Shown: positions 2,056 to 16,269 of the stretch, in pieces
Position numbering within the stretch: the first letter of the stretch is position 1
How the letters are laid out: each line of letters starts with the position of its first letter
Source of the DNA: an uncultured virus (IMG/VR IMGVR_UViG_3300046794_000135)
Taxonomy: Duplodnaviria; Heunggongvirae; Uroviricota; Caudoviricetes
Strand: one strand, 5' to 3'
Virus record (IMG/VR): IMGVR_UViG_3300046794_000135
Length of the DNA stretch: 20,000 nucleotides
Position numbers and translations under genes: made by a program
Notes under the pieces: model-generated
The model's database searches: none
What the model was told of the DNA's origin: nothing
Seen by the model: the letters and a program-made list of their open reading frames with translations, nothing else

Positions 2056-2736
2056 TCAGGCCACACCGGCCAGCGCGATAAAATGCACCGAGTGTACGCA
2101 ATTCCCATCGAATCGAAGCTCTTTCGGCGGATTGAATTGCTCCAAGACCAGCTCGATGCTGTTTTGCCGGACGAAACGCTTCACGTAGGCCAAAAGCGGC
2201 CCATGCTCTTCCAGCCTCACCTGGGCGATCACGTAATCGCCACGCTTCACCCGTCGCCTTGGATCGACGAAGCAAACTTCGCCATCCTCGTACCTCGGCT
2301 CCATGCTCGAACCTGAGACTGCGACACCGTAGGCCCCCGATATGTGAGAGATCACCGGAGGTGCCATCACCTCGTAAAGCACTGTTCCGTTCATCAGAAA
2401 TTCCCCGTCAACGCCTCCTACGGCTTGCCCATAAACAGGGATTCGCCGCCCAAGACCTTCAACCTTATCCCCAACTGTCGCGTTCGGGGGATCAAATATA
2501 GGGGATGTTCTATCCGATTTCGGAACATCGTTAACAGCCTCCGATGTCCCATTTCCGAACATGAGGGACTCCGCGGTGATGTTCAGATGCGGGGCAATTT
2601 TTTCGGCCCATTCCTTCGTCAGCTTACGCTCACCGCTCTCCAAACGCTTGATTTGGGGCTGAGACGTGCCAACCAGCTCGGCCAATGCCGATTGGCTGAT
2701 GGAAATTTTTTCGCGTAACTCTTTGATCATGTTCAT
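2056..2736 (-). CDS. cI: CI-like prophage repressor (XRE HTH plus S24 peptidase)
   Basis: N-terminal HTH (ISQSALAELVGTSQPQIKRLESG), AVGG cleavage-type region, catalytic Ser in GSSMEP and Lys in YVKR; divergent from a cro-like gene. Confidence 0.93.
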   Translation of the reverse strand: MNMIKELREKISISQSALAELVGTSQPQIKRLESGERKLTKEWAEKIAPHLNITAESLMFGNGTSEAVNDVPKSDRTSPIFDPPNATVGDKVEGLGRRIPVYGQAVGGVDGEFLMNGTVLYEVMAPPVISHISGAYGVAVSGSSMEPRYEDGEVCFVDPRRRVKRGDYVIAQVRLEEHGPLLAYVKRFVRQNSIELVLEQFNPPKELRFDGNCVHSVHFIALAGVA

Positions 2737-2747
2737 ATACCGACATT

Positions 2748-2821
2748 ATTCCGATATGGAATTTTGTTCAAAAGCCATTTTGGTATGGAAAAACGCTTGC
2801 GTGCCGATGCCATTTTGGTAT
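2748..2821. promoter_or_regulatory. Right operators OR3 (2748-2762), OR2 (2772-2786), OR1 (2807-2821)
   Basis: ATTCCGATATGGAAT, AAGCCATTTTGGTAT and ATGCCATTTTGGTAT; consensus ATNCC-N5-GGHAT shared with OL. Confidence 0.8.
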
Positions 2822-2824
2822 TAT
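2797..2824 (+). promoter_or_regulatory. PR-like promoter
   Basis: TTGCGT-16 bp-TATTAT, with OR1 overlapping the -10; cro ATG 5 nt downstream. Confidence 0.65.
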
Positions 2825-2829
2825 GCAGC

Positions 2830-3069
2830 ATGACCCTTGAAGAATATCTCGAAAAGCAAGCACCGAAGCTCTCCCACGCCGAGTTTGGCGAGCGGGTTGG
2901 CGTGACGCAGGCAGCCATCAGCAGATACCTGAATGGCACTCGCTTTCCGTCTCCAGAGCTTATCCGGAAAATCCAGTCTGCGACGAACGACGTCGTGACG
3001 GCGAACGATCTTCTTGTCGGGTTTGAGAAAGCCAAATCGAAAAAGCAGGCACGGGAGAACGCCGCATGA
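2830..3069 (+). CDS. cro: Cro-like XRE HTH regulator
   Basis: MTLEEYL...LSHAEFGERVGVTQAAISRYLNGTRFPSPELIRKIQSAT...VTANDL; divergent from cI. Confidence 0.88.
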   Translation: MTLEEYLEKQAPKLSHAEFGERVGVTQAAISRYLNGTRFPSPELIRKIQSATNDVVTANDLLVGFEKAKSKKQARENAA

Positions 3070-3410
3070 GCTGGTGGGATCAAGCAACCGCCGAGCAGAA
3101 GCTCGCACAGATAGACGCTGGGATTTCCCTCGGCATGACCGGCAAGCAGATATCTATATGCTTGCGTGTCCCCGAGGTTGTGAACGGCAACAGTAAGGTT
3201 ACGGCCTTCGCTCATTCGCATGGCCGGAGTTTCCCGACGACACGGTCAATCGCCGCGATGCGAGGCGGGGCTGCAGCCGCGAAGACGCACAGCCTTCGCA
3301 TTCCAAGGCTATCCGGCACGCCTGAACACATGATCAGCGGCGCTTTCGATATTTTCGAGCGGGACGACGAGCGGGAAGAACTTTCGTTCGGTCTGGAGGC
3401 TGCGGAATGA
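3066..3410 (+). CDS. Hypothetical protein, possible N-terminal HTH (GcrA-like start)
   Basis: ATGA-coupled to cro; MSWW...GMTGKQISICL weakly resembles a GcrA-type N-terminal HTH. Confidence 0.65.
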   Translation: MSWWDQATAEQKLAQIDAGISLGMTGKQISICLRVPEVVNGNSKVTAFAHSHGRSFPTTRSIAAMRGGAAAAKTHSLRIPRLSGTPEHMISGAFDIFERDDEREELSFGLEAAE

Positions 3411-3658
3411 CCTGGAACCACAACATCAAAGCAGCCCCTCACAGCAAGAGCCAGCGCAGGGTTATCAGCACCACCAAGGGCGAGCGAGCCTACAACGAAA
3501 TTCAGCACGAGTACCTCATTCTCGAAACGAAGTGCGGGAAGGTTCTGAAATCATACTGGATCCCCGATGAAGAGCGTTGGGCTGGTCTGGCGACAGGTGA
3601 AGAGCCGATTGCGTGGCAGGAATGGCCCAAGCCTTCCAGAGCCCAGATCGCAGCATGA
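3407..3658 (+). CDS. DUF551-like hypothetical protein
   Basis: MTWNHNIKAAP ... PIAWQEWPKP terminal motifs; ATGA-coupled. Confidence 0.7.
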   Translation: MTWNHNIKAAPHSKSQRRVISTTKGERAYNEIQHEYLILETKCGKVLKSYWIPDEERWAGLATGEEPIAWQEWPKPSRAQIAA

Positions 3659-3689
3659 AACCCCCACCAAACACAGAGAGGGCGGATCG

Positions 3690-4007
3690 ATGACGTTTCG
3701 AGTTGGACAGAAAGTGTTCCTGGCCGTTGACTTCGATCCAGAAGTCAGGGCTTCGGCTCCGAGTGACGACATGATCTTACCTTCCACGGAGGTGGTCTAT
3801 ACGATCCGCCAGATTGGCGAGTTCGAAGGCGACCCGCTGGTTTGGCTTGAAGAGATCACCAACCGTCCGAGGTTTTATCTCGACGCTTTCGACTTCATGG
3901 AACAGGGGTTCGGAGCTTTCCGGTTCCGCCCAGTCGTTGAAGGGAAGGCCGATATCAGCCGGTTAAAAGCCATGCTCAATCCCTCGAAACAAGGTGTACC
4001 GGCATGA
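3690..4007 (+). CDS. Hypothetical phage protein (SH3/KOW-like start)
   Basis: MTFRVGQKV...YTIR...FRFRPVV pattern common in alphaproteobacterial phages; SD GAGGG upstream. Confidence 0.75.
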   Translation: MTFRVGQKVFLAVDFDPEVRASAPSDDMILPSTEVVYTIRQIGEFEGDPLVWLEEITNRPRFYLDAFDFMEQGFGAFRFRPVVEGKADISRLKAMLNPSKQGVPA

Positions 4008-4192
4008 GCGACACACTCTACCTGACTTTCCTCATCGTCGGCGTACCTGCCATCGGCATTGCGGCTCTCGTCTACTGCCTCTGCGTGAAAAGCGGGCAGT
4101 GCAGCCGCGAGGAAGAATCCGAGATTGCCGGCGCTCTTGAAGGCGACCTCACTCCCTACATCAAATCCCTGAACCGTGGAGAGGTGATGTGA
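4004..4192 (+). CDS. Small single-TM membrane protein
   Basis: Hydrophobic N-terminus LYLTFLIVGVPAIGIAALVYCLC; coupled overlaps. Confidence 0.7.
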   Translation: MSDTLYLTFLIVGVPAIGIAALVYCLCVKSGQCSREEESEIAGALEGDLTPYIKSLNRGEVM

Positions 4193-7144: not shown

Positions 7145-7332
7145 GCGACAGCGCCCTCAAACTGTTCCGCGGCGGCTTTGACTATGTCGAGATCGCCAAC
7201 ATGCTCCGCACCACGGAGGCCGAGATAGAAAAGCGGATCCACGCCGAACGTGATGTCGAAACGAACAAGGCCCGCATGCGTGTCTGGCGCCGGGAGTACA
7301 TGCGCCGGCAGAGAGCGGAGAAGCGGGCATGA
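7141..7332 (+). CDS. Small HTH-like basic protein
   Basis: ALKLFRGGFDYVEIANMLRTTEAEIEKRI resembles an HTH; coupled overlaps; SD GAGGAAGG. Confidence 0.7.
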   Translation: MSDSALKLFRGGFDYVEIANMLRTTEAEIEKRIHAERDVETNKARMRVWRREYMRRQRAEKRA

Positions 7333-7670
7333 ACAAGTACCGCAACCAGCCAGTAGAGATCGACGGATTTCGCTTCTCCAGCAAGAAAGAAGCCAACCGC
7401 TATTGCGAGCTGAAGCTTCTGCAGAGGGCCGGGGAGATATCGCACCTCGAGATCCAGCCACGCTTCAAGCTTCTCGTGAACGGTTCAGCGCTGAAATACG
7501 AGAGCGGACGACAGGCGGTCTACATCGCGGACTTTGCGTACTTCGACCCGTCACGCGAGCGGCGGATTGTTGAAGACGTGAAGAGCCCCGCGACGAGAAC
7601 GCCGCTCTACAAGCTCAAGAAGTGCCTTGTCGAGGCAATCTATCCCGCAGTGAAAATCATCGAGATCTGA
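7329..7670 (+). CDS. DUF1064-family PD-(D/E)xK endonuclease
   Basis: NKYRN...IDGFRFSSKKEANRY.EL...GEI..LE.QP.F...YIADFAY...IVEDVKS...YKLKK signature. Confidence 0.9.
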   Translation: MNKYRNQPVEIDGFRFSSKKEANRYCELKLLQRAGEISHLEIQPRFKLLVNGSALKYESGRQAVYIADFAYFDPSRERRIVEDVKSPATRTPLYKLKKCLVEAIYPAVKIIEI

Positions 7671-8384: not shown

Positions 8385-8975
8385 ATGAACATGCACACGA
8401 CAAATGAACTCACAGCAGAACTCACGACCCACTACAGCGATATTCGCAGGAAGCTTATGGGCATAGCGCCGAGGAAGGGTATTCCTTCCCCAGTCGCAGC
8501 CAAGAAGGCAGACGACAGCGAACTGGTCGCCAGTTTACAGCGTGACAAGGTTTCGCTTGAAGCCGAACTGAACGACGCACGTCGCAGCCTTCGCTATGTG
8601 GCTGAGAAAGAGAAGATGCATCGCGAGACGGAACGCAGGCTGGAAAAGCTTGAGCTCGACCTGTCCGATGCTCGCGCCCGCATTCTCAGCCAAGCCGAGA
8701 TGATGAAGGTGCTGGATGAGAAAGAGGGATTCGGTGAAGTAACCGACAAGCGCCGGCCAGTTAAGGAGATTATCGCGGAAGTGCTGAAGGGCTATCCCGG
8801 CATCAAATGGGAAGACATCAAGGGCATTCGCCGCACCCGCGACCTGATCGCGCCGCGCCATGCTTGCATGAAGGCCGTCTACGAAGAGCGGAAAGACCTG
8901 TCTTTGCCGAAAATTGGGGATGTATTCTCACGCGACCACACCACAATCTTGCATGCTGTAATGAAAACAACCTAA
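8385..8975 (+). CDS. Coiled-coil protein with C-terminal DnaA domain IV-like HTH (Bac_DnaA_C)
   Basis: LIAPRHACM......DLSLPKIGDVFSRDHTTILHAV matches the DnaA signature SLP.IG..F.RDHTTV.HA. Confidence 0.88.
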   Translation: MNMHTTNELTAELTTHYSDIRRKLMGIAPRKGIPSPVAAKKADDSELVASLQRDKVSLEAELNDARRSLRYVAEKEKMHRETERRLEKLELDLSDARARILSQAEMMKVLDEKEGFGEVTDKRRPVKEIIAEVLKGYPGIKWEDIKGIRRTRDLIAPRHACMKAVYEERKDLSLPKIGDVFSRDHTTILHAVMKTT

Positions 8976-9022
8976 TAGTGCATACGATAACAAAGGCATC
9001 ATACATTTAGGAGCGGCACTAA

Positions 9023-9655
9023 ATGGCATCACGTGCAGAAAAACTCAGGTCAAAGCGTGCATCACGAAGCGTAGGGCGTCCTCGTAAAGAGGGCGTCGAT
9101 CGGTATCCAAGCGGGGATATCAAGCGTCATGAGACAGAAAAGGACGTTCTCAGCGTGGCATTGGAAGCGAGACAGCGGATACACGGTCTATCGGAAAACA
9201 ACGCCCTGGCTGGCTATACGCTGGGACGCATGTTTCTCGACGGCGCTATCAACGAAGAGCAGCGCAAGGCCGGTGACGACTACGCGGAAATCATCAGCCG
9301 CTATCATCGCCTCGTTGGAATCCCATATCCAAGCGCACGTGCGCAATCGCTGTTCACGGTGAAGGGTCACGACGGGGAAGTGACGGAAAGCCTCGCCAAG
9401 CGTGCCAGAGACGCCAGCAATCGCATGATGGAGGTGGAGGGTATTCTGCTTCGCTGCGTCGACGGCCCACAGGTCAAGGGAACGGTCTATAACCTATGCG
9501 TTATGGATTACGACCACCTGCGGGGGATGGCTCCTCAACAATTGTTGTGGCTGAAGCGGGGATTGAACGCGTTGCTCAAAAGCAAGGAGTTGCGTGAGAA
9601 AGGCAAATCAGTTATGAGTTGGGATATTCCATTCTCAGAACTGTCACCAGTTTAA
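9023..9655 (+). CDS. Hypothetical protein, putative late-gene regulator (Q-like position)
   Basis: Strong SD AGGAG; basic N-terminus with AT-hook-like GRPRK; last early gene before the packaging module; function inferred from position. Confidence 0.7.
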   Translation: MASRAEKLRSKRASRSVGRPRKEGVDRYPSGDIKRHETEKDVLSVALEARQRIHGLSENNALAGYTLGRMFLDGAINEEQRKAGDDYAEIISRYHRLVGIPYPSARAQSLFTVKGHDGEVTESLAKRARDASNRMMEVEGILLRCVDGPQVKGTVYNLCVMDYDHLRGMAPQQLLWLKRGLNALLKSKELREKGKSVMSWDIPFSELSPV

Positions 9656-9885
9656 AGGGTCGGCTTCGGCCTCTAGAGCACGTCTCCCCTGAAGAGGGGT
9701 TTCGCTAAGCCGGGGGCCGACACTCAAATCCTTGTTCGCAAGGTCGGCAGGATGGCCTCTGCCGCTTCAATTCGAGGCAATGCCTCAACGCCATCGGGAA
9801 GGCCAGTCCAATTGGGCGTAGTCGGACACGATAAAGAGCAACGCCAAGCTCTGCCTTCCCGACAATCATCCTTTCAGGGATTGAG
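9656..9885 (+). ncRNA. Candidate structured RNA/leader including a three-way junction with complementary loops
   Basis: Hairpins CCCCT-GAAG-AGGGG, CCTTG-TTCG-CAAGG and GAGGC-AAT-GCCTC; 10-bp P1 9794-9803/9853-9862 enclosing two stems whose loops GGCGT and ACGCC are complementary. Confidence 0.55.
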
Positions 9886-10074
9886 ATGAGCGACACAGAC
9901 GCATTCTCCCCTCTCGATGACTACTGCTACATCCTCGAAGCTTCCACAGACGACGGTATTCAAGGCTGGGCGCTCATAGACAGCGACGGCGAGCTTGAAG
10001 TCTTCGCAGAGAGCCGCAGAGACGTGCTCTACTACGCCGCAGCGCATGAAATCCAGATCGTCAAGCCGAATTAG
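9886..10074 (+). CDS. Small acidic protein, DUF1150-like
   Basis: WALIDSDGELEVFAESRRDVLYYAAAHEIQIV resembles the DUF1150 C-terminal pattern (L...DG......DSR..A...A..HEL..V). Confidence 0.55.
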   Translation: MSDTDAFSPLDDYCYILEASTDDGIQGWALIDSDGELEVFAESRRDVLYYAAAHEIQIVKPN

Positions 10075-10190
10075 GGCTCTTGGACGGTCGCGAATACAAC
10101 CTAGCAGGTTGTGCAAACTCCCAAAAATGACACCCACTCCCACGGCCAGTACCAACGCCAAGTTGATTAGGCCGTAAAATGAGGCCCAAA

Positions 10191-10478
10191 ATGCCTAAAG
10201 TAGGCTTAGATAGATCCAAAACGGGCAGGGCGAAGGGAACCCCGAACAAGACGACCGCGCTCTTGAAAGATGCGATCCTTCAGGCGGCAGAACTCGCCGG
10301 CGACAAGGTCGGCAATGATGGCCTTGTCTCTTACCTCACAGCCCAGGCGATCGATAACCCGGGCCCGTTCCTATCTCTCCTCGGCAAGGTTCTGCCAATC
10401 CAAATGGTTGGCGACCCAAATAACCCGATCGTCACCATAACCAAGATCGAGCTTGTTGCTCCTGATGGCAACAGCTAG
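10191..10478 (+). CDS. terS: Terminase small subunit
   Basis: GRAKGTPNKTT.LLKDAIL.AA...G...YL...A..NP..FL.LLGKVLP motif; directly upstream of terL; SD GAGG. Confidence 0.8.
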   Translation: MPKVGLDRSKTGRAKGTPNKTTALLKDAILQAAELAGDKVGNDGLVSYLTAQAIDNPGPFLSLLGKVLPIQMVGDPNNPIVTITKIELVAPDGNS

Positions 10479-11766
10479 GCTCGAGCTGCCTCCGAAGCTT
10501 ATCCCTGTTTTCATGGGTGAGGCTCGCTACAGAGGTGCATACGGCGGCAGAGGGTCAGGCAAGACACGAACTTTTGCCAAGATGGCGGCGGTCAAAGGAT
10601 ACCAGCTTTCGCAGGCTGGTCAGACAGGGGTTATCGTCTGCGGTCGTGAGTTCATGAACTCGCTTGATGAAAGCTCGATGGCCGAGGTGAAGGCGGCGAT
10701 TGCTTCCGAGCCGTGGCTCGCTGCTCATTACGACGTTGGCGAGAAATACATCCGCACCTTGGATGGCCGCATCTCGTTTGCGTTCATTGGGTTGCGGCAC
10801 AATCTCGATAGCATCAAGTCGAAATCGCAGATCCATTTGCTATGGGTTGATGAGGCCGAGCCGGTATCGGACGCGGCATGGATCAAGATCACGCCAACAG
10901 TTCGTGAGCATAATTCAGAAATCTGGGTCACATGGAACCCAGAGCGAAAGAACAGCGCCACCCACAAACGCTTTAGGGAAGACCCTCCAGAGGGGTCGAA
11001 GATTGTCGAGATCAACTACACCGACAATCCCTGGTTCCCTCATGTGCTTGAGATTGAGCGCCTGAACGACTTCCACAAGCGGCCCGATCAATACCCCCAC
11101 ATATGGGAGGGTGATTTTGTCACTGTTGTCGAAGGCGCGTATTTTGCCAAGGCTTTGGCGGTCGCTCGTCAGGAGAAGCGCATCGGTGCCGTTGCCCAAG
11201 ACCCGCTCATGCCGAAGAAGGCATATTGGGACATAGGCGTTAGTGACGCCACAACGATCTGGGTCGTGCAGTTCATCGGCCATCAGATCAGGGTCATCGA
11301 TTATTACGAGGTTGAGAACCAACCTCTGTCGGCTCACCTCGAATGGATGCGGGCCAAAGGGCATGGAAGCGCCGAATGTGTTCTGCCGCATGACGGCGAG
11401 CATCGGGATGCGGTGACAGCCATCCGGTTTGAGGATCACATCCGATCGGCAGGGTTTGAGGTCCGCACTGTTGCCAACCAAGGCAAGGGCGCGGCGATGA
11501 AGCGCGTTGAAGCTGCCCGTCGCCTGTTCCCGAACATGTGGTTCGATCAAGAGAAATGCTCGGCAGGCTTGGATGCGCTGGGCTGGTATCACGAAAAGAG
11601 AGACGAAGAGCGCGGCGTTGGTCTCGGTCCAATGCACGACTGGGCATCTCACGGGGCCGACAGCTTTGGCCTCATGGCTGTGGATCATGAAGAGCCATAC
11701 ACGCCCGCCTCTCGCAAAAGATATTCCTCACGCGGCGGTTCTTCCGCATCTTGGATGGCTGGCTGA
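10465..11766 (+). CDS. terL: Terminase large subunit (PBSX/Terminase_3-like, probably headful packaging)
   Basis: Walker A YGGRGSGKT, Walker B LLWVDEAE, coupling motif TWNP, nuclease motifs WDIG and SHGADSF. Confidence 0.95.
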   Translation: MATARLELPPKLIPVFMGEARYRGAYGGRGSGKTRTFAKMAAVKGYQLSQAGQTGVIVCGREFMNSLDESSMAEVKAAIASEPWLAAHYDVGEKYIRTLDGRISFAFIGLRHNLDSIKSKSQIHLLWVDEAEPVSDAAWIKITPTVREHNSEIWVTWNPERKNSATHKRFREDPPEGSKIVEINYTDNPWFPHVLEIERLNDFHKRPDQYPHIWEGDFVTVVEGAYFAKALAVARQEKRIGAVAQDPLMPKKAYWDIGVSDATTIWVVQFIGHQIRVIDYYEVENQPLSAHLEWMRAKGHGSAECVLPHDGEHRDAVTAIRFEDHIRSAGFEVRTVANQGKGAAMKRVEAARRLFPNMWFDQEKCSAGLDALGWYHEKRDEERGVGLGPMHDWASHGADSFGLMAVDHEEPYTPASRKRYSSRGGSSASWMAG

Positions 11767-13811
11767 TGGCTGATTACAACGACACAGCAGATGATGCGCC
11801 GCGCGGCAAAAACGCCGAACTGACGCGCACGCTGAAGTCCTGGTATGCTGAAGACATCAAGCATGTGGCCGAATGGCGCCGTATTGCCCGTGAAGACTAC
11901 GAGTTCTATAACGGTGACCAGTGGTCGCAGGACGACATGAACACCCTGCGCGATCAAAAGCGCCCAGCACTCACGTTCAATCGCATCGGCCCGCTGGTTA
12001 ACGCTGTCGTCGGGTCTGAGATCAACAATCGCCGTGAGGTGCAGTACATCCCGCGTGAGCAGGGTGACGCCATTGCCAACGAAATCCTGACATCAGCCGG
12101 TGAATGGTTCCGCGACCAGACCGGCGCCGAGGACGAAGAGTCGGACGCCTTCGAAGATGCCACGATTTGCGGTATGGGCTGGACAGACACCCGGCTTGAT
12201 TTCGAGGACGACCCTGACGGCGCACCGCAGATCCGCCGCCTCGACCCGCTGAAGATGGTTTGGGACTGCAACGCCTCAAAGCCTAACCTGGAAGACGCCC
12301 AGCGCCTTTGGTACGTGGACGAGAAGCCATATTCCGAAGTCAAGCAGATGTTTCCTGATGTTGCCAGGGAATTGCTCAATGCAGGTTGGGCCAAGACGCT
12401 CGGCAATGACCAAGCAAAGCCACATGATCAGGACCAAGCTGACCTGTATTCCGGCGATCAGAATGAGTTTTCCAGCGGATATTCGCGCAAGATGTGCACG
12501 CTGGTGGAATGCCGGTGGTTTGAGAAGGTGCCTTACTATCGCGGTCCCGATATGCAGACGATGCAGCCACGGGAGTACAGCGAGGAGCAGGTAAAGCTCA
12601 TCCGCAAGGATTTGCCCAACTTCCCGGCTGTCCGTCAATATCGGAAGGTAGTCAAGCGGGCGTTCATCGGTGCTGAAGTGCTGGCCGATCCGGATCAGCC
12701 GCTCGTCCCTCCTGGAATGTTCGGTTGGGAATGCATCACCGGCTACCGGGATAAGCTGAAGCGCACGTTCTACGGCATTGTTCGGCCTGCCAAAGACCCA
12801 CAGCGCTGGTCAAACAAGTTCTTCAGCCAGACGCAGTTCTTGCTCAACAGCCAGTCCAAGGGCGGCATCATTGCTGAACATGGGTTGGCGGAAGACCCGC
12901 GCCAGTTCGAAGAGAGCTGGGCCAAGACAGACGCGATTTCATGGGCAAAGCAGGGTGCGCTCTCTGGGCAGAACCCGAAGTTCATGCCGAAGCCCGTTGC
13001 ACAGTTCCCAAGCGGCTTCTTCACGCTGTTCAATGAGAGCAAGGAAGCCATCAGCCAGGTCACCGGCCTTTCGCCTGAATTCATCGGAACACGCGAAGTC
13101 GATCAGGCTGGCGTGCTGGAATATCAGCGCCGGCAATCATCCCTCAACCTGCTTGCGTCATTGTTCAATAGCCTGCGCCGGTATCGTAAGCGTCAGGGCA
13201 AGACAATGCTTTACCTCATCCAGAACCACCTCAGTGATGGTCGCCTCGTTCGCATCGTCGGGGATGACAAGGCTCAGTATGTGCCGCTCACCAAGGAAGC
13301 GGTGGCAAGCTCTCAGTACGACATTATCGTTGACGACGCGCCGACCAGCCCGAACGAGAAGGACCGCACATGGCAGATCATCTCCCAGATGCTGCCTATG
13401 CTGAAGGACTACATGACGCCGGAAGTCGGGCTCGAAATACTGAAATGGTCGCCTCTCCCCGCCTCTATGGTTAGCAAGCTGGAGCGCAAGGCCAAGGAAG
13501 CAGCCGAAGAGGCAGCACAGCAGCCGCCGCCGCCGACGCCCGAAGAACAGAAGATGATGCTTGAACAGCAGAAGGCGCAATTGTCTATGCAGGGCATGCA
13601 GGCCGATCTCGCGGCGCAGCAGCAGAAAAATCAGATGGATGTCCAGATGAAGGGGATCGATCTGATGGCAAAGCAGCGTGAGGCTGAGATTGACGGTGCG
13701 GTTAGTGCGGCGAAGCTTCAGCAGGACGCCCAGCGCCTCGCCATTCAGGAGCAGCAGAACGCTATCCAAGCCCAGAACGCTAATTCCCGCCGGATATCAT
13801 CGGCAGACTGA
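11766..13811 (+). CDS. Portal protein (P22-like, with long Gln-rich C-terminal coiled coil)
   Basis: FYNGDQW...RPALTFNRI.P.VN.V.G; 681 aa directly after terL; Q/A-rich C-terminal tail. Confidence 0.92.
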   Translation: MADYNDTADDAPRGKNAELTRTLKSWYAEDIKHVAEWRRIAREDYEFYNGDQWSQDDMNTLRDQKRPALTFNRIGPLVNAVVGSEINNRREVQYIPREQGDAIANEILTSAGEWFRDQTGAEDEESDAFEDATICGMGWTDTRLDFEDDPDGAPQIRRLDPLKMVWDCNASKPNLEDAQRLWYVDEKPYSEVKQMFPDVARELLNAGWAKTLGNDQAKPHDQDQADLYSGDQNEFSSGYSRKMCTLVECRWFEKVPYYRGPDMQTMQPREYSEEQVKLIRKDLPNFPAVRQYRKVVKRAFIGAEVLADPDQPLVPPGMFGWECITGYRDKLKRTFYGIVRPAKDPQRWSNKFFSQTQFLLNSQSKGGIIAEHGLAEDPRQFEESWAKTDAISWAKQGALSGQNPKFMPKPVAQFPSGFFTLFNESKEAISQVTGLSPEFIGTREVDQAGVLEYQRRQSSLNLLASLFNSLRRYRKRQGKTMLYLIQNHLSDGRLVRIVGDDKAQYVPLTKEAVASSQYDIIVDDAPTSPNEKDRTWQIISQMLPMLKDYMTPEVGLEILKWSPLPASMVSKLERKAKEAAEEAAQQPPPPTPEEQKMMLEQQKAQLSMQGMQADLAAQQQKNQMDVQMKGIDLMAKQREAEIDGAVSAAKLQQDAQRLAIQEQQNAIQAQNANSRRISSAD

Positions 13812-15067: not shown

Positions 15068-15180
15068 TCTACACAGACGTTACTCGTGTCCCTTCCCAGT
15101 GGGGTTCTCTGGCTTCGCAAGCTCGCAGCGTCACCGCGACATCACACCCCCAAAAGATCATCAAAACATAGGAGCCTATG

Positions 15181-16269
15181 ATGGCTGCAACTACCTATGG
15201 TGTAAACGATGCGCTCGCGGTGAAGCTGTGGAGCAAGAAGCTTGCTGTTGAAGTAAGCAAAGCCACGGCAATCGCCCCGCTCATCGGCACCTCTTCCAAC
15301 TCTATCATCCAGCTCAAGGACGAGACTCAGAAGGGCAGCGGTGACAAGGTCACTTTCGGCCTTCGCACGCAGCTTGTCGGTGACGGTGTTACCGAAAACC
15401 AGATCCTTGAAGGCAACGAAGAAGCGCTGTCCACCTACTCGGATGCGATCCTCATCAACGAACTCGCTCATGCCGTTCGTGTGAAGAACGACCAGACGAT
15501 CGACGCCCAGCGCATCCCGTTCTCGCTTCGTGACGAAGCCAACGCGGGCCTGACCGACTGGTATGCAGACCGTATGTCTCTCGCTGCGTTCATGCAGTGG
15601 GGCGGCTACACTGCTCCTACGATGTCGTTCGAAGGCCGTACGCTGACCATCAAGCCGGTGCATTACCTCTTCAATGCCCCGACTGCCCCGACCCGCGTCG
15701 TTCGCCCGAACGCCCGCGCCAACGACCAGTCGCTTATCTCAACCGATCTGTTCACCCTGAACTTGATCGATGCGGCTGTTGAACAGGCCAAGCTTGCCAA
15801 CCCTCGTATTCGCCCCGTGCGCATCGACGGTGAAAACAAGTATGTCATGTATCTGCACCCAACGCAGGTCACCGACATTCGCACTTCAACAGCTGCCGGC
15901 CAGTGGCTCGACATCACGAAGGCCGTCTACCAGGGCTCCAAGCAGAACAACCCGATCTATGATGGGTCGCTCGGCGAATACAACGGGGTCATCCTGCGTG
16001 AAGCTGAACACGTCGTTCCCGGCGTCAATGCTTCGACCGGTGCACAGATCACCACGGTTCGCCGTGCTGTCCTGCTCGGTGCGCAGTCCGCCGTTGCGGC
16101 CTTCGGCATGAAGGCTGCTCCCGACAAGTACAAAATGGTTGAAGAACTCTTCGACTATCAACGCGAACTCGGCGTTTCCGTCCAGACCGTCCTTGGCATG
16201 AAGAAGACCGTTTTCAACGGCAACGACTTCGGCGCCATCGTGGTTGCGACCTACGCTGCACCGCACTAA
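15181..16269 (+). CDS. Major capsid protein (N4-gp56/DUF4043 family)
   Basis: AVKLWSKKL, KGSGDKVTFGL...L.G.GV.....LEGNEE.L..YSD.I.INEL.HAV, G.LGEYNGVILRE, EELFDY; SD AGGAG. Confidence 0.93.
   Translation: MAATTYGVNDALAVKLWSKKLAVEVSKATAIAPLIGTSSNSIIQLKDETQKGSGDKVTFGLRTQLVGDGVTENQILEGNEEALSTYSDAILINELAHAVRVKNDQTIDAQRIPFSLRDEANAGLTDWYADRMSLAAFMQWGGYTAPTMSFEGRTLTIKPVHYLFNAPTAPTRVVRPNARANDQSLISTDLFTLNLIDAAVEQAKLANPRIRPVRIDGENKYVMYLHPTQVTDIRTSTAAGQWLDITKAVYQGSKQNNPIYDGSLGEYNGVILREAEHVVPGVNASTGAQITTVRRAVLLGAQSAVAAFGMKAAPDKYKMVEELFDYQRELGVSVQTVLGMKKTVFNGNDFGAIVVATYAAPH

Follow-up and report, generated by a model that had tools for sequence, protein, structure and literature searches.

The window, a stretch of 20,000 nucleotides of DNA from an uncultured virus (IMG/VR IMGVR_UViG_3300046794_000135), carries in its late-gene leader a hairpin-rich segment of 69 nt (9794-9862, + strand) that looks, on comparison with its relatives, like one copy of an unclassified modular RNA-type element. 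Judged by that sequence comparison, what is conserved in related Rhizobium phages is a closing stem, P1, and the linker preceding it, and not the kissing loops that a preliminary description of the same DNA had placed at the heart of a compact three-way junction. The description's broader proposal, an unclassified structured + strand RNA-type element at the start of the late operon, is supported by the lack of an Rfam match, by covariation and by G·U pairs. Its defining topology is not retained, since the interior enclosed by P1, including P2, P3 and both loops, varies among the 24 aligned copies. We tentatively favor a cis-acting late-leader RNA module, in which the constant core would serve as a docking or processing platform and the interior would be a tolerated insert.

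Genomic setting of the late leader

The window comes from a temperate phage or prophage of the lambda-like kind, a relative of Rhizobium phages; its features are collected in Table 1. In lambda, the gene that lies 5' of the late operon, at the position held here by the 210-aa gene, is Q, and the gap that follows the 210-aa gene is therefore taken as the late leader. The 210-aa protein is a candidate late regulator. It belongs to PHROG 15385, a family of unknown function, has no Pfam match, and has 191 homologues, all named hypothetical and all from Rhizobium or its phages wherever a source is named. Its AF2 model (all-helical, pLDDT 66) gave no PDB fold match at E ≤ 0.001, and no profile similarity was detected between the protein and the NusG paralogue of locus L234, described below. 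A GRPxK motif is invariant near its basic N-terminus (G18, R19, P20 and K22), with R21 nearly invariant.

The leader region from 9650 to 9890 folds at −95.4 kcal/mol (z −2.84), and neither a sigma-70-like promoter nor an intrinsic terminator was detected in 8900-10600. P1 itself was considered as a terminator and rejected, zero terminator-like sites being called in that interval and the sequence 3' of the stem being CAAUCAUCC. The element was correctly placed ahead of the packaging genes in the preliminary description. Homologues of the 62-aa ORF follow the leader in L086/L192, L141, L142 and L186, whether the element is present or not. In L141 the two hairpins that precede the element are shared and are followed directly by the ribosome-binding site of the same downstream ORF; on the alignment, these hairpins mark the 5' edge of an insertion or deletion, because element-less relatives share them. 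A second single-stranded motif, (C)UUCCAAAGCC(A), lies 5' of the upstream hairpin in many leaders (e.g., L122, L118, L157, L074, L086, L150), and the window carries a shortened form of it, CUUCAAUUCG (9766-9774).

Table 1. Features of the window, in order of position (position 1 is the first letter of the 20,000-nt stretch).
Feature	Position	Strand	Description
cI-like repressor	2056-2736	-	
Rightward early operon		+	methyltransferase, RusA (7329-7670), replication proteins, DnaA-C-like protein
210-aa gene	9023-9655	+	last of the rightward early operon, after RusA and replication genes; anchors most related loci
Untranslated leader	9656-9885	+	230-nt gap from the 210-aa gene to the first late ORF, a chain of hairpins
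Two leader hairpins	9730-9764	+	CCUUG-UUCG-CAAGG and CGGCAG...CUGCCG; common to element-less relatives (L141, L189 alignment)
H0 hairpin	9774-9786	+	GAGGC-AAU-GCCUC, 13 nt, just 5' of the linker
Single-stranded linker	9787-9793	+	AACGCCA, ahead of the U opening P1; from the 5' contexts of 22 copies and alignment A4
P1 5' arm	9794-9803	+	TCGGGAAGGC = UCGGGAAGGC; constant core
Interior	9804-9852	+	49 nt, holding the P2, joiner and P3 of the preliminary description; singleton class among 24 aligned copies
P3	9835-9839 with 9848-9852	+	AGAGC with GCTCT, exact 5 bp; loop AACGCCAA (9840-9847, 8 nt)
P1 3' arm	9853-9862	+	GCCTTCCCGA = GCCUUCCCGA; 10 perfect pairs with the 5' arm
First late-side ORF, 62 aa	9886-10074	+	ribosome-binding region starts about 14 nt past P1
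Late genes 3' of the leader			62-aa ORF and 99-aa ORF, then large terminase (10453-11766), portal (11751-13811) and major head protein (15178-16269)

Fold of the window copy

Reading of the bases confirmed the perfect P1 stem of the preliminary description, and P3 with its loop and the joiner ACGATAA are both present as described there. P1 and P3 dominate the fold of the 69-mer with near certainty, pair probabilities being at least 0.98 for nine of the ten P1 pairs and at least 0.93 for P3. For P2, the two proposed arms, GTCCAATT (9806-9813) and AGTCGGAC (9820-9827), do exist, but only seven of the eight positions pair, an A·C mismatch lies mid-stem, and the helix has a probability of 0.02. 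The minimum free energy fold (−32.9 kcal/mol, z −4.49, equaled by none of 200 shuffles) is a four-way structure of cloverleaf outline in which two 4-bp hairpins replace P2, and the three-way junction, at −28.9 kcal/mol, lies 4 kcal/mol above it. The minus strand of the 69-mer folds too (−29.9, z −3.24), as expected of any inverted repeat.

The loop complementarity from which the kissing-loop junction was drawn, GGCGT with ACGCC, is real: shuffling those two loops yields at least five complementary bases in 2% of trials, and the GGCGU/ACGCC duplex alone is worth −8.4 kcal/mol. It is, however, confined to the minor fold and was picked post hoc.

A constant stem around unrelated interiors

Related loci were anchored on the 210-aa protein, which matched eight GenBank Rhizobium phages (regions from six were used), 40 IMG/VR loci and 20 genome loci, and further loci were anchored on the 62-aa ORF. 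A first pattern scan of viral contigs had returned 112 stretches, nearly all chance, with six distinct loci real. Everywhere, the 210-aa gene is followed by about 130-750 nt of non-coding sequence built of hairpins, and in many of these leaders the P1 arms of the window recur nearly letter for letter around wholly different sequence. The shared anatomy consists of a small hairpin of varying identity (H0), a linker of 7-8 nt, AAC(G/A)AGAU, a closing stem of 7-11 bp with the consensus (U)CGGGAAG(G)...(C)CUUCCCG(A), and an interior of 27-145 nt. The interiors of the 24 aligned copies belong to 18 unrelated classes (five small homology classes and 13 singletons), and loci hold zero, one, two or three copies. 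In the RHph_N2 group the base of H0 carries a long extension of about 50 nt (by eye), and of this long hairpin the window keeps only the base.

A covariance model, R1, built from the 24 aligned copies (alignment A4), matched 25 of 75 searched sources at E ≤ 0.0013, several of them duplicates and always on the gene strand; its matches outside the training set include L180, L155, L231-L234 and L238. The window falls within the R1 definition at 64.8 bits (E 8e-17), as one of the 24 training sequences itself, and scores 19.5 bits on its minus strand. None of 17 Rhizobium chromosomal loci (L124-L140) matched at E ≤ 0.0013, and weak matches below threshold were seen in L125 (E 0.045, minus strand) and L127 (E 0.15). 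A scan of 150 Rhizobium genomes with R1 placed the element in seven, with five clear members (L231, L232, L233, L234 and L238), none of which lies beside a 210-aa homologue; their upstream genes come from at least four other families.

The element is missing from L141 and L142, whose 210-aa proteins come closest to that of the window (86% and 85%), and is therefore not needed for late expression in general. Its modular character is visible in metagenomes. A 4.9-kb rhizosphere contig matches 9500-10072 with four differences, none of them in the element. Other contigs track the window to 9801, the end of CGGGAAG (two runs), and then carry a different interior, and others part from it at 9768/9770, the start of the upstream hairpin, so that the modules have sharp, shared edges.

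A single homologue of the window interior was found in a scan of 151 Rhizobium genomes, at 1486-1548 of L219 (90% over 48 nt, E 1.6e-10). It keeps the P1 stem, the junction, the joiner CACGAUAA and P3; this joiner and P3 (9835-9852) are the only parts of the interior found again elsewhere. A G-to-A change in its P3 loop and a U-to-G change in its P2-loop segment turn two of the five proposed loop pairs into C·A and G·A, with no compensation. The preliminary description had held in advance that loop complementarity neither conserved nor compensated in homologues would speak against the kissing loops, and by that standard the idea fails, on the evidence of this one homologue of the interior. None of the 23 other copies has hairpin loops with five or more complementary bases in its best fold (maximum 4). 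A metagenome pattern scan for window-type interiors, with a pattern avoiding both loops, gave no match, and a looser P3-plus-arm pattern gave 22, all chance and none with the 5' arm.

Selection on pairing

Within the core of the stem, two pairs, at columns 64/192 and 67/189, do not vary in any of the 24 copies, and the other five pairs of columns 64-70 are of a single type in 21-23 of 24. Compensatory variants occur in L002 (UCGAGAGGGUU/AGCUCUCUCGA), L162 (CAGGAAGAU/AUCUUCCUG) and L180 (CAGGACGG/CCGUCCUG), the last beside a protein just 30% identical to that of the window; both arms are altered together in L119 (UCGGGCGCC/GCGCCUGA), and the L155 variant has a bulge. Over alignment A4, 88.5% of P1 cells pair, a value inflated by the finding of most copies through the arm sequence, the variants found through 5' context or the model being the informative ones. 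Five of the ten P1 pairs change on both sides, the P1 covariation score was reached by none of 500 shuffles, and slid registers drop to 34-57% paired. All five pairs of H0 show changes on both sides across copies, with 63% of cells pairing because different hairpins occupy the slot.

Departures from Watson-Crick pairing in columns 64-70 amount to six G·U cells and one non-standard cell, in the misaligned L118 row. Because G·U pairs become A·C mismatches on the opposite strand, they fit a + strand RNA. The arms are nearly identical in phages whose neighboring proteins are only 50-65% identical, which, together with the compensatory changes, argues for selection on pairing. The comparison thus indicates that P1 is maintained as an RNA stem in the + strand sense. 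Structure is also kept within interior classes: in one class, variable columns number 2 of 54 paired and 14 of 55 unpaired, in a second 10 of 48 and 43 of 63, and two to four compensatory pairs occur in three classes, counts that are biased toward structure, and so supportive only, because the alifold structures were fitted to the same sequences.

Comparison with known RNA classes

Rfam 15 yielded nothing at gathering score anywhere in the window and nothing at E ≤ 10 in 9400-10200, as the label "unclassified" in the preliminary description had claimed, and no family matches any relative's element copy scanned. The analogies drawn there to purine riboswitches and phi29 pRNA find no support. 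The purine riboswitch aptamer (RF00167) has no covariance-model match, and its loop-loop (L2-L3) type of pairing is not kept across homologues and hence is not a family trait. The phi29-type pRNA (presumably RF00044) has no Rfam match, and the packaging genes, which encode a portal and a large terminase of the Terminase_3 type, are not of the phi29 type. A tRNA or tRNA-like assignment was rejected, ARAGORN calling no tRNA gene in the window and RF00005 giving no match at E ≤ 10; neither calls any element copy in the relatives scanned. The minus-strand ORF at 9705-9896 (63 aa), which overlaps the element, was rejected as coding, relatives differing by wholesale replacement and indels. Host-genome repeats of the REP, RIME or MITE type were rejected on counts in three genomes, where arm-pair matches number 2-7 per strand and a reversed-pattern control gives 11-13. 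An invertible DNA segment is likewise rejected, since all seven homologous interior pairs lie in the same orientation.

The bacterial Y RNAs and YrlA (RF02553) resemble the element in that a conserved closing stem encloses a domain that varies and is sometimes tRNA-like (Chen et al. 2014, PMC4201824). The window has no match to RF02553. A hairpin of the RHph_N2 group, GAGGCGAAUGCC...CUCGUCGCCUC, found beside the element in relatives (L117 2844-2906, L119 3593-3655, L120 2951-3013, L145 967-1105), reaches 35-39 bits as a YrlA stem, but this is far under the cut-off of 69, and sub-threshold matches also occur in nine of 14 control genomes. No TROVE/Ro protein was found in the three host genomes searched, and the assignment was rejected.

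RNA genes in the leaders of relatives

Transfer RNA genes are known downstream of Q in Stx phages, and in L123 (3578-3742, Gly-UCC and one with unassigned anticodon) and L114 (379-450, Gly-UCC) the homologous leader contains true tRNA genes. The element thus shares its genomic slot with phage late-leader tRNA genes and tRNA-like modules, and a few interiors have canonical T arms next to the 3' arm. Against this likeness, the P3 loop of the window is not a T loop, most interiors are devoid of tRNA features, and the element stem has 8-10 bp where a tRNA has 7. The first ~190 nt of the 3392-4083 gap of L119 hold a tRNA-like sequence of ~95 nt that has ACCA at its 3' side, the stem GGGAAGG/CCUUCCC, a long variable region, an anticodon-type loop, CUGUAAA (GUA, Tyr), and a T loop, UUCGACU, of canonical form (by eye). 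It is called by neither ARAGORN nor Rfam, and the shared stem may descend from it.

The abiF RNA motif (RF03085) was found above the Rfam cut-off in three leaders, at 2121-2156 of L144, 538-575 of L189 and 1501-1537 of L229 (minus strand), and an AbiF gene was seen beside none of these copies. The L144 copy, at 37.9 bits (cut-off 37), lies upstream of a constant-stem element, 7 nt separating the two; the motif occurs in just two of 151 Rhizobium genomes. In AbiF abortive-infection systems the motif, grouped here with the RCd22 antitoxin RNA, serves as the antitoxin RNA (bioRxiv 10.1101/2025.04.15.648962), and the leader copies could be phage-borne antitoxin decoys. Like the element, RNAs of this kind are phage-borne and structured and precede a terminator. 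The loop of the motif, CUCUCAACGAU, resembles the H0-linker sequence CUCAACGAGAU, a likeness of ~10 nt that may be chance. In contrast, the window has no abiF match.

Two further observations concern the same surroundings. At 2875-2942 of L120, in the same leader region, a DUF3800-VIII RNA motif comes near threshold (39.4 bits; cut-off 40.2). In L219 the window-type chromosomal copy and the two hairpins and terminator that follow it span 1486-1640, L234 has the same downstream sequence behind a different interior, and a pair of genes for an Xre/MbcA/ParS antitoxin and a RES toxin (1775-2628) lies directly 3' of the element region in this one Rhizobium genome.

Possible functions of the element

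According to the cis-acting reading, which we put first while holding it tentatively, the window copy represents a modular RNA carried by a group of temperate, lambda-like Rhizobium phages, where it occupies the long untranslated leader of the late operon, that of the packaging and head genes. Function would reside in the core, made up of the short upstream hairpin, the purine-rich linker and the CGGGAAG/CUUCCCG stem, and the interior would need only to fold compactly, in the window as 49 nt with one solid hairpin, P3. Once transcribed, the core would form in the nascent leader and work in cis, either docking a conserved host component or being processed by one (RNA polymerase, Nus factors or an endoribonuclease), and the presumed effect on late expression would be that the late transcript reads through downstream terminators or survives. 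Conservation is concentrated in the linker and at the foot of two helices, whose distal parts are free, a distribution that suggests a docking or processing platform and not a ligand pocket. The same core is found 3' of at least five unrelated upstream proteins, which points to a host partner and not to those proteins.

The position of the element is constant: the leader that holds it is always preceded by the last early or regulatory gene, which in the window is the one at the lambda-Q position. In L234, a prophage NusG paralogue (2321-2941, minus strand; Pfam NusG N-terminal domain, PHROG "transcription antiterminator") is encoded two genes upstream of the element. A GC-rich hairpin with a U-run follows the element by ~10-75 nt in L003, L166, L144, L155, L219, L231 and L234, as judged by eye; the terminator script, which demands perfect stems, called five of 27, two of them doubtful, and terminator counts are thus partly by eye. 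By analogy, a location past the Q-position gene or near a NusG paralogue, and before terminators in several members, fits a cis role.

HK022 put and lambda nut are cis-acting leader RNA elements of processive antitermination. The element resembles leaders of this kind in position and architecture and is not known to resemble them in sequence or by model. Like the LoaP-dependent dfn hairpin, it occupies an untranslated leader 3' of a regulator gene and 5' of terminators and a long operon, and its function would, by analogy, lie in a small hairpin-plus-linker core; LoaP, a NusG paralogue, requires a small leader RNA hairpin and an intrinsic terminator (PMC12691694). The element differs from such leaders in that its large, swappable interior has no counterpart there and in that it is dispensable in close relatives. 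Counting against a cis-acting module are the absence of a terminator in the window between the element and the first late ORF, the presence of a terminator with no element in L187, L191 and L193 (by eye), and the structure kept within interior classes, of which a mere spacer is not obviously in need.

That last observation is explained by the main rival reading, which we regard as possible but unlikely, in which the stem and linker would be only a clamp and processing signal and the interior a putative payload, an accessory small RNA made from the heavily transcribed late leader. Termination or processing of the tRNA type would release this RNA, which might act as a mimic or decoy of a host regulatory or defence RNA. 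Such a role would explain the structured, diverse interiors, with their compensatory pairs in three classes, as well as the neighboring RNA genes, the same slot holding tRNAs (L123, L114) or the abiF motif (L144, L229) in relatives. Canonical T arms occur in the interiors of L156, L117 and the first L119 copy, loci such as L151, L162, L168 and L119 hold two or three copies with different interiors, and the window interior has its chromosomal twin in L219, with two hairpins and a terminator, just upstream of the Xre/RES pair. Most copies have U at −1, and ACCA lies past the stem in eight of the 22 copies listed, features that would suit RNase P. On the other side, T arms are confined to a few interior classes, and no copy is accepted by ARAGORN or the Rfam tRNA model. 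The N2-class element has no host counterpart in 151 Rhizobium genomes, and a minimal version with a plain hairpin as its interior, which would leave no cargo, seems present in L121 (by eye).

A bolder form of the payload idea, to which we give rather little credence, takes the elements as a phage-borne library of swappable, small structured RNAs ("RNA morons"): the late leader would express them, a common stem would clamp and process them, and their hypervariable cargoes would mimic or decoy host RNAs with regulatory or defence-associated roles. It is hinted at by the L219 twin beside the Xre/RES pair, by the adjacent abiF and tRNA slots and by the 18 unrelated cargo classes among 24 copies.

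We consider it improbable that the elements are evolutionary debris, decayed inserts, tRNA-like or other, within a leader prone to recombination, with functionless RNA and with arms that act as homology patches for module exchange. The coming and going of the element among close relatives, the halting of metagenome contig similarity at module edges (9801 and 9768/9770), the homing-endonuclease genes scattered through the region in Rhizobium phages and the tRNA-Tyr-like pseudo-tRNA with the same stem in L119 (by eye) would all be accommodated by such a history. It would not account for arms that stay near-identical despite 50-65% identity of their neighbors, for the compensatory changes elsewhere, or for the common orientation of seven of seven homologous interior pairs, and there is no amplification in host genomes, where matches stay below the reversed control.

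A site acting at the DNA level, with the arms as inverted double-stranded sites for the small terminase (in the manner of the lambda cosB R sites), a late activator or a recombinase, would be suggested by a fixed-sequence inverted repeat just 5' of the packaging genes, and is very improbable. The arm spacing ranges from 27 to 145 bp, both arms alter together in variants, the non-Watson-Crick departures are G·U on the + strand only (bar the one misaligned cell), the covariation in the interiors is of RNA type, and no inverted interiors were seen. A cos site is, moreover, not to be expected of circularly permuted phages with a Terminase_3-type terminase, and the phage records here are circularly permuted assemblies with an enzyme of that type.

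Hardly credible at all is the junction of the preliminary description, locked by riboswitch-like intramolecular or pRNA-like intermolecular loop pairing: the rarity and strength of its loop complementarity are outweighed by the improbable P2, the two loop pairs broken in L219, the lack of such loops in all 23 other copies, the lack of Rfam matches, the type of packaging genes and the absence of the element from the closest relatives. Among the functions proposed with it, an antitermination-type leader RNA stays plausible, whereas ligand-binding and oligomerizing roles are not supported. The remaining probability falls to some explanation not yet conceived.

Implications for late-gene control

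The element is of a known kind, the phage leader RNAs, and what sets it apart is that a single constant stem encloses many unrelated inserts. Should the core of the cis-acting module prove to be a docking site on the nascent late transcript, lambda-like alpha-proteobacterial phages, whose late switch is, to our knowledge, uncharacterized, would have a new cis element of late-gene control, and the Q-position 210-aa protein would become more accessible to study. Should the interiors prove to be cargo, phages would be trading small RNAs at a hot spot in the leader, all held by the same clamp; these would be accessory genes of a new form and might supply anti-defence RNAs. On either reading, one stem around many inserts provides a natural experiment for work on RNA structure.
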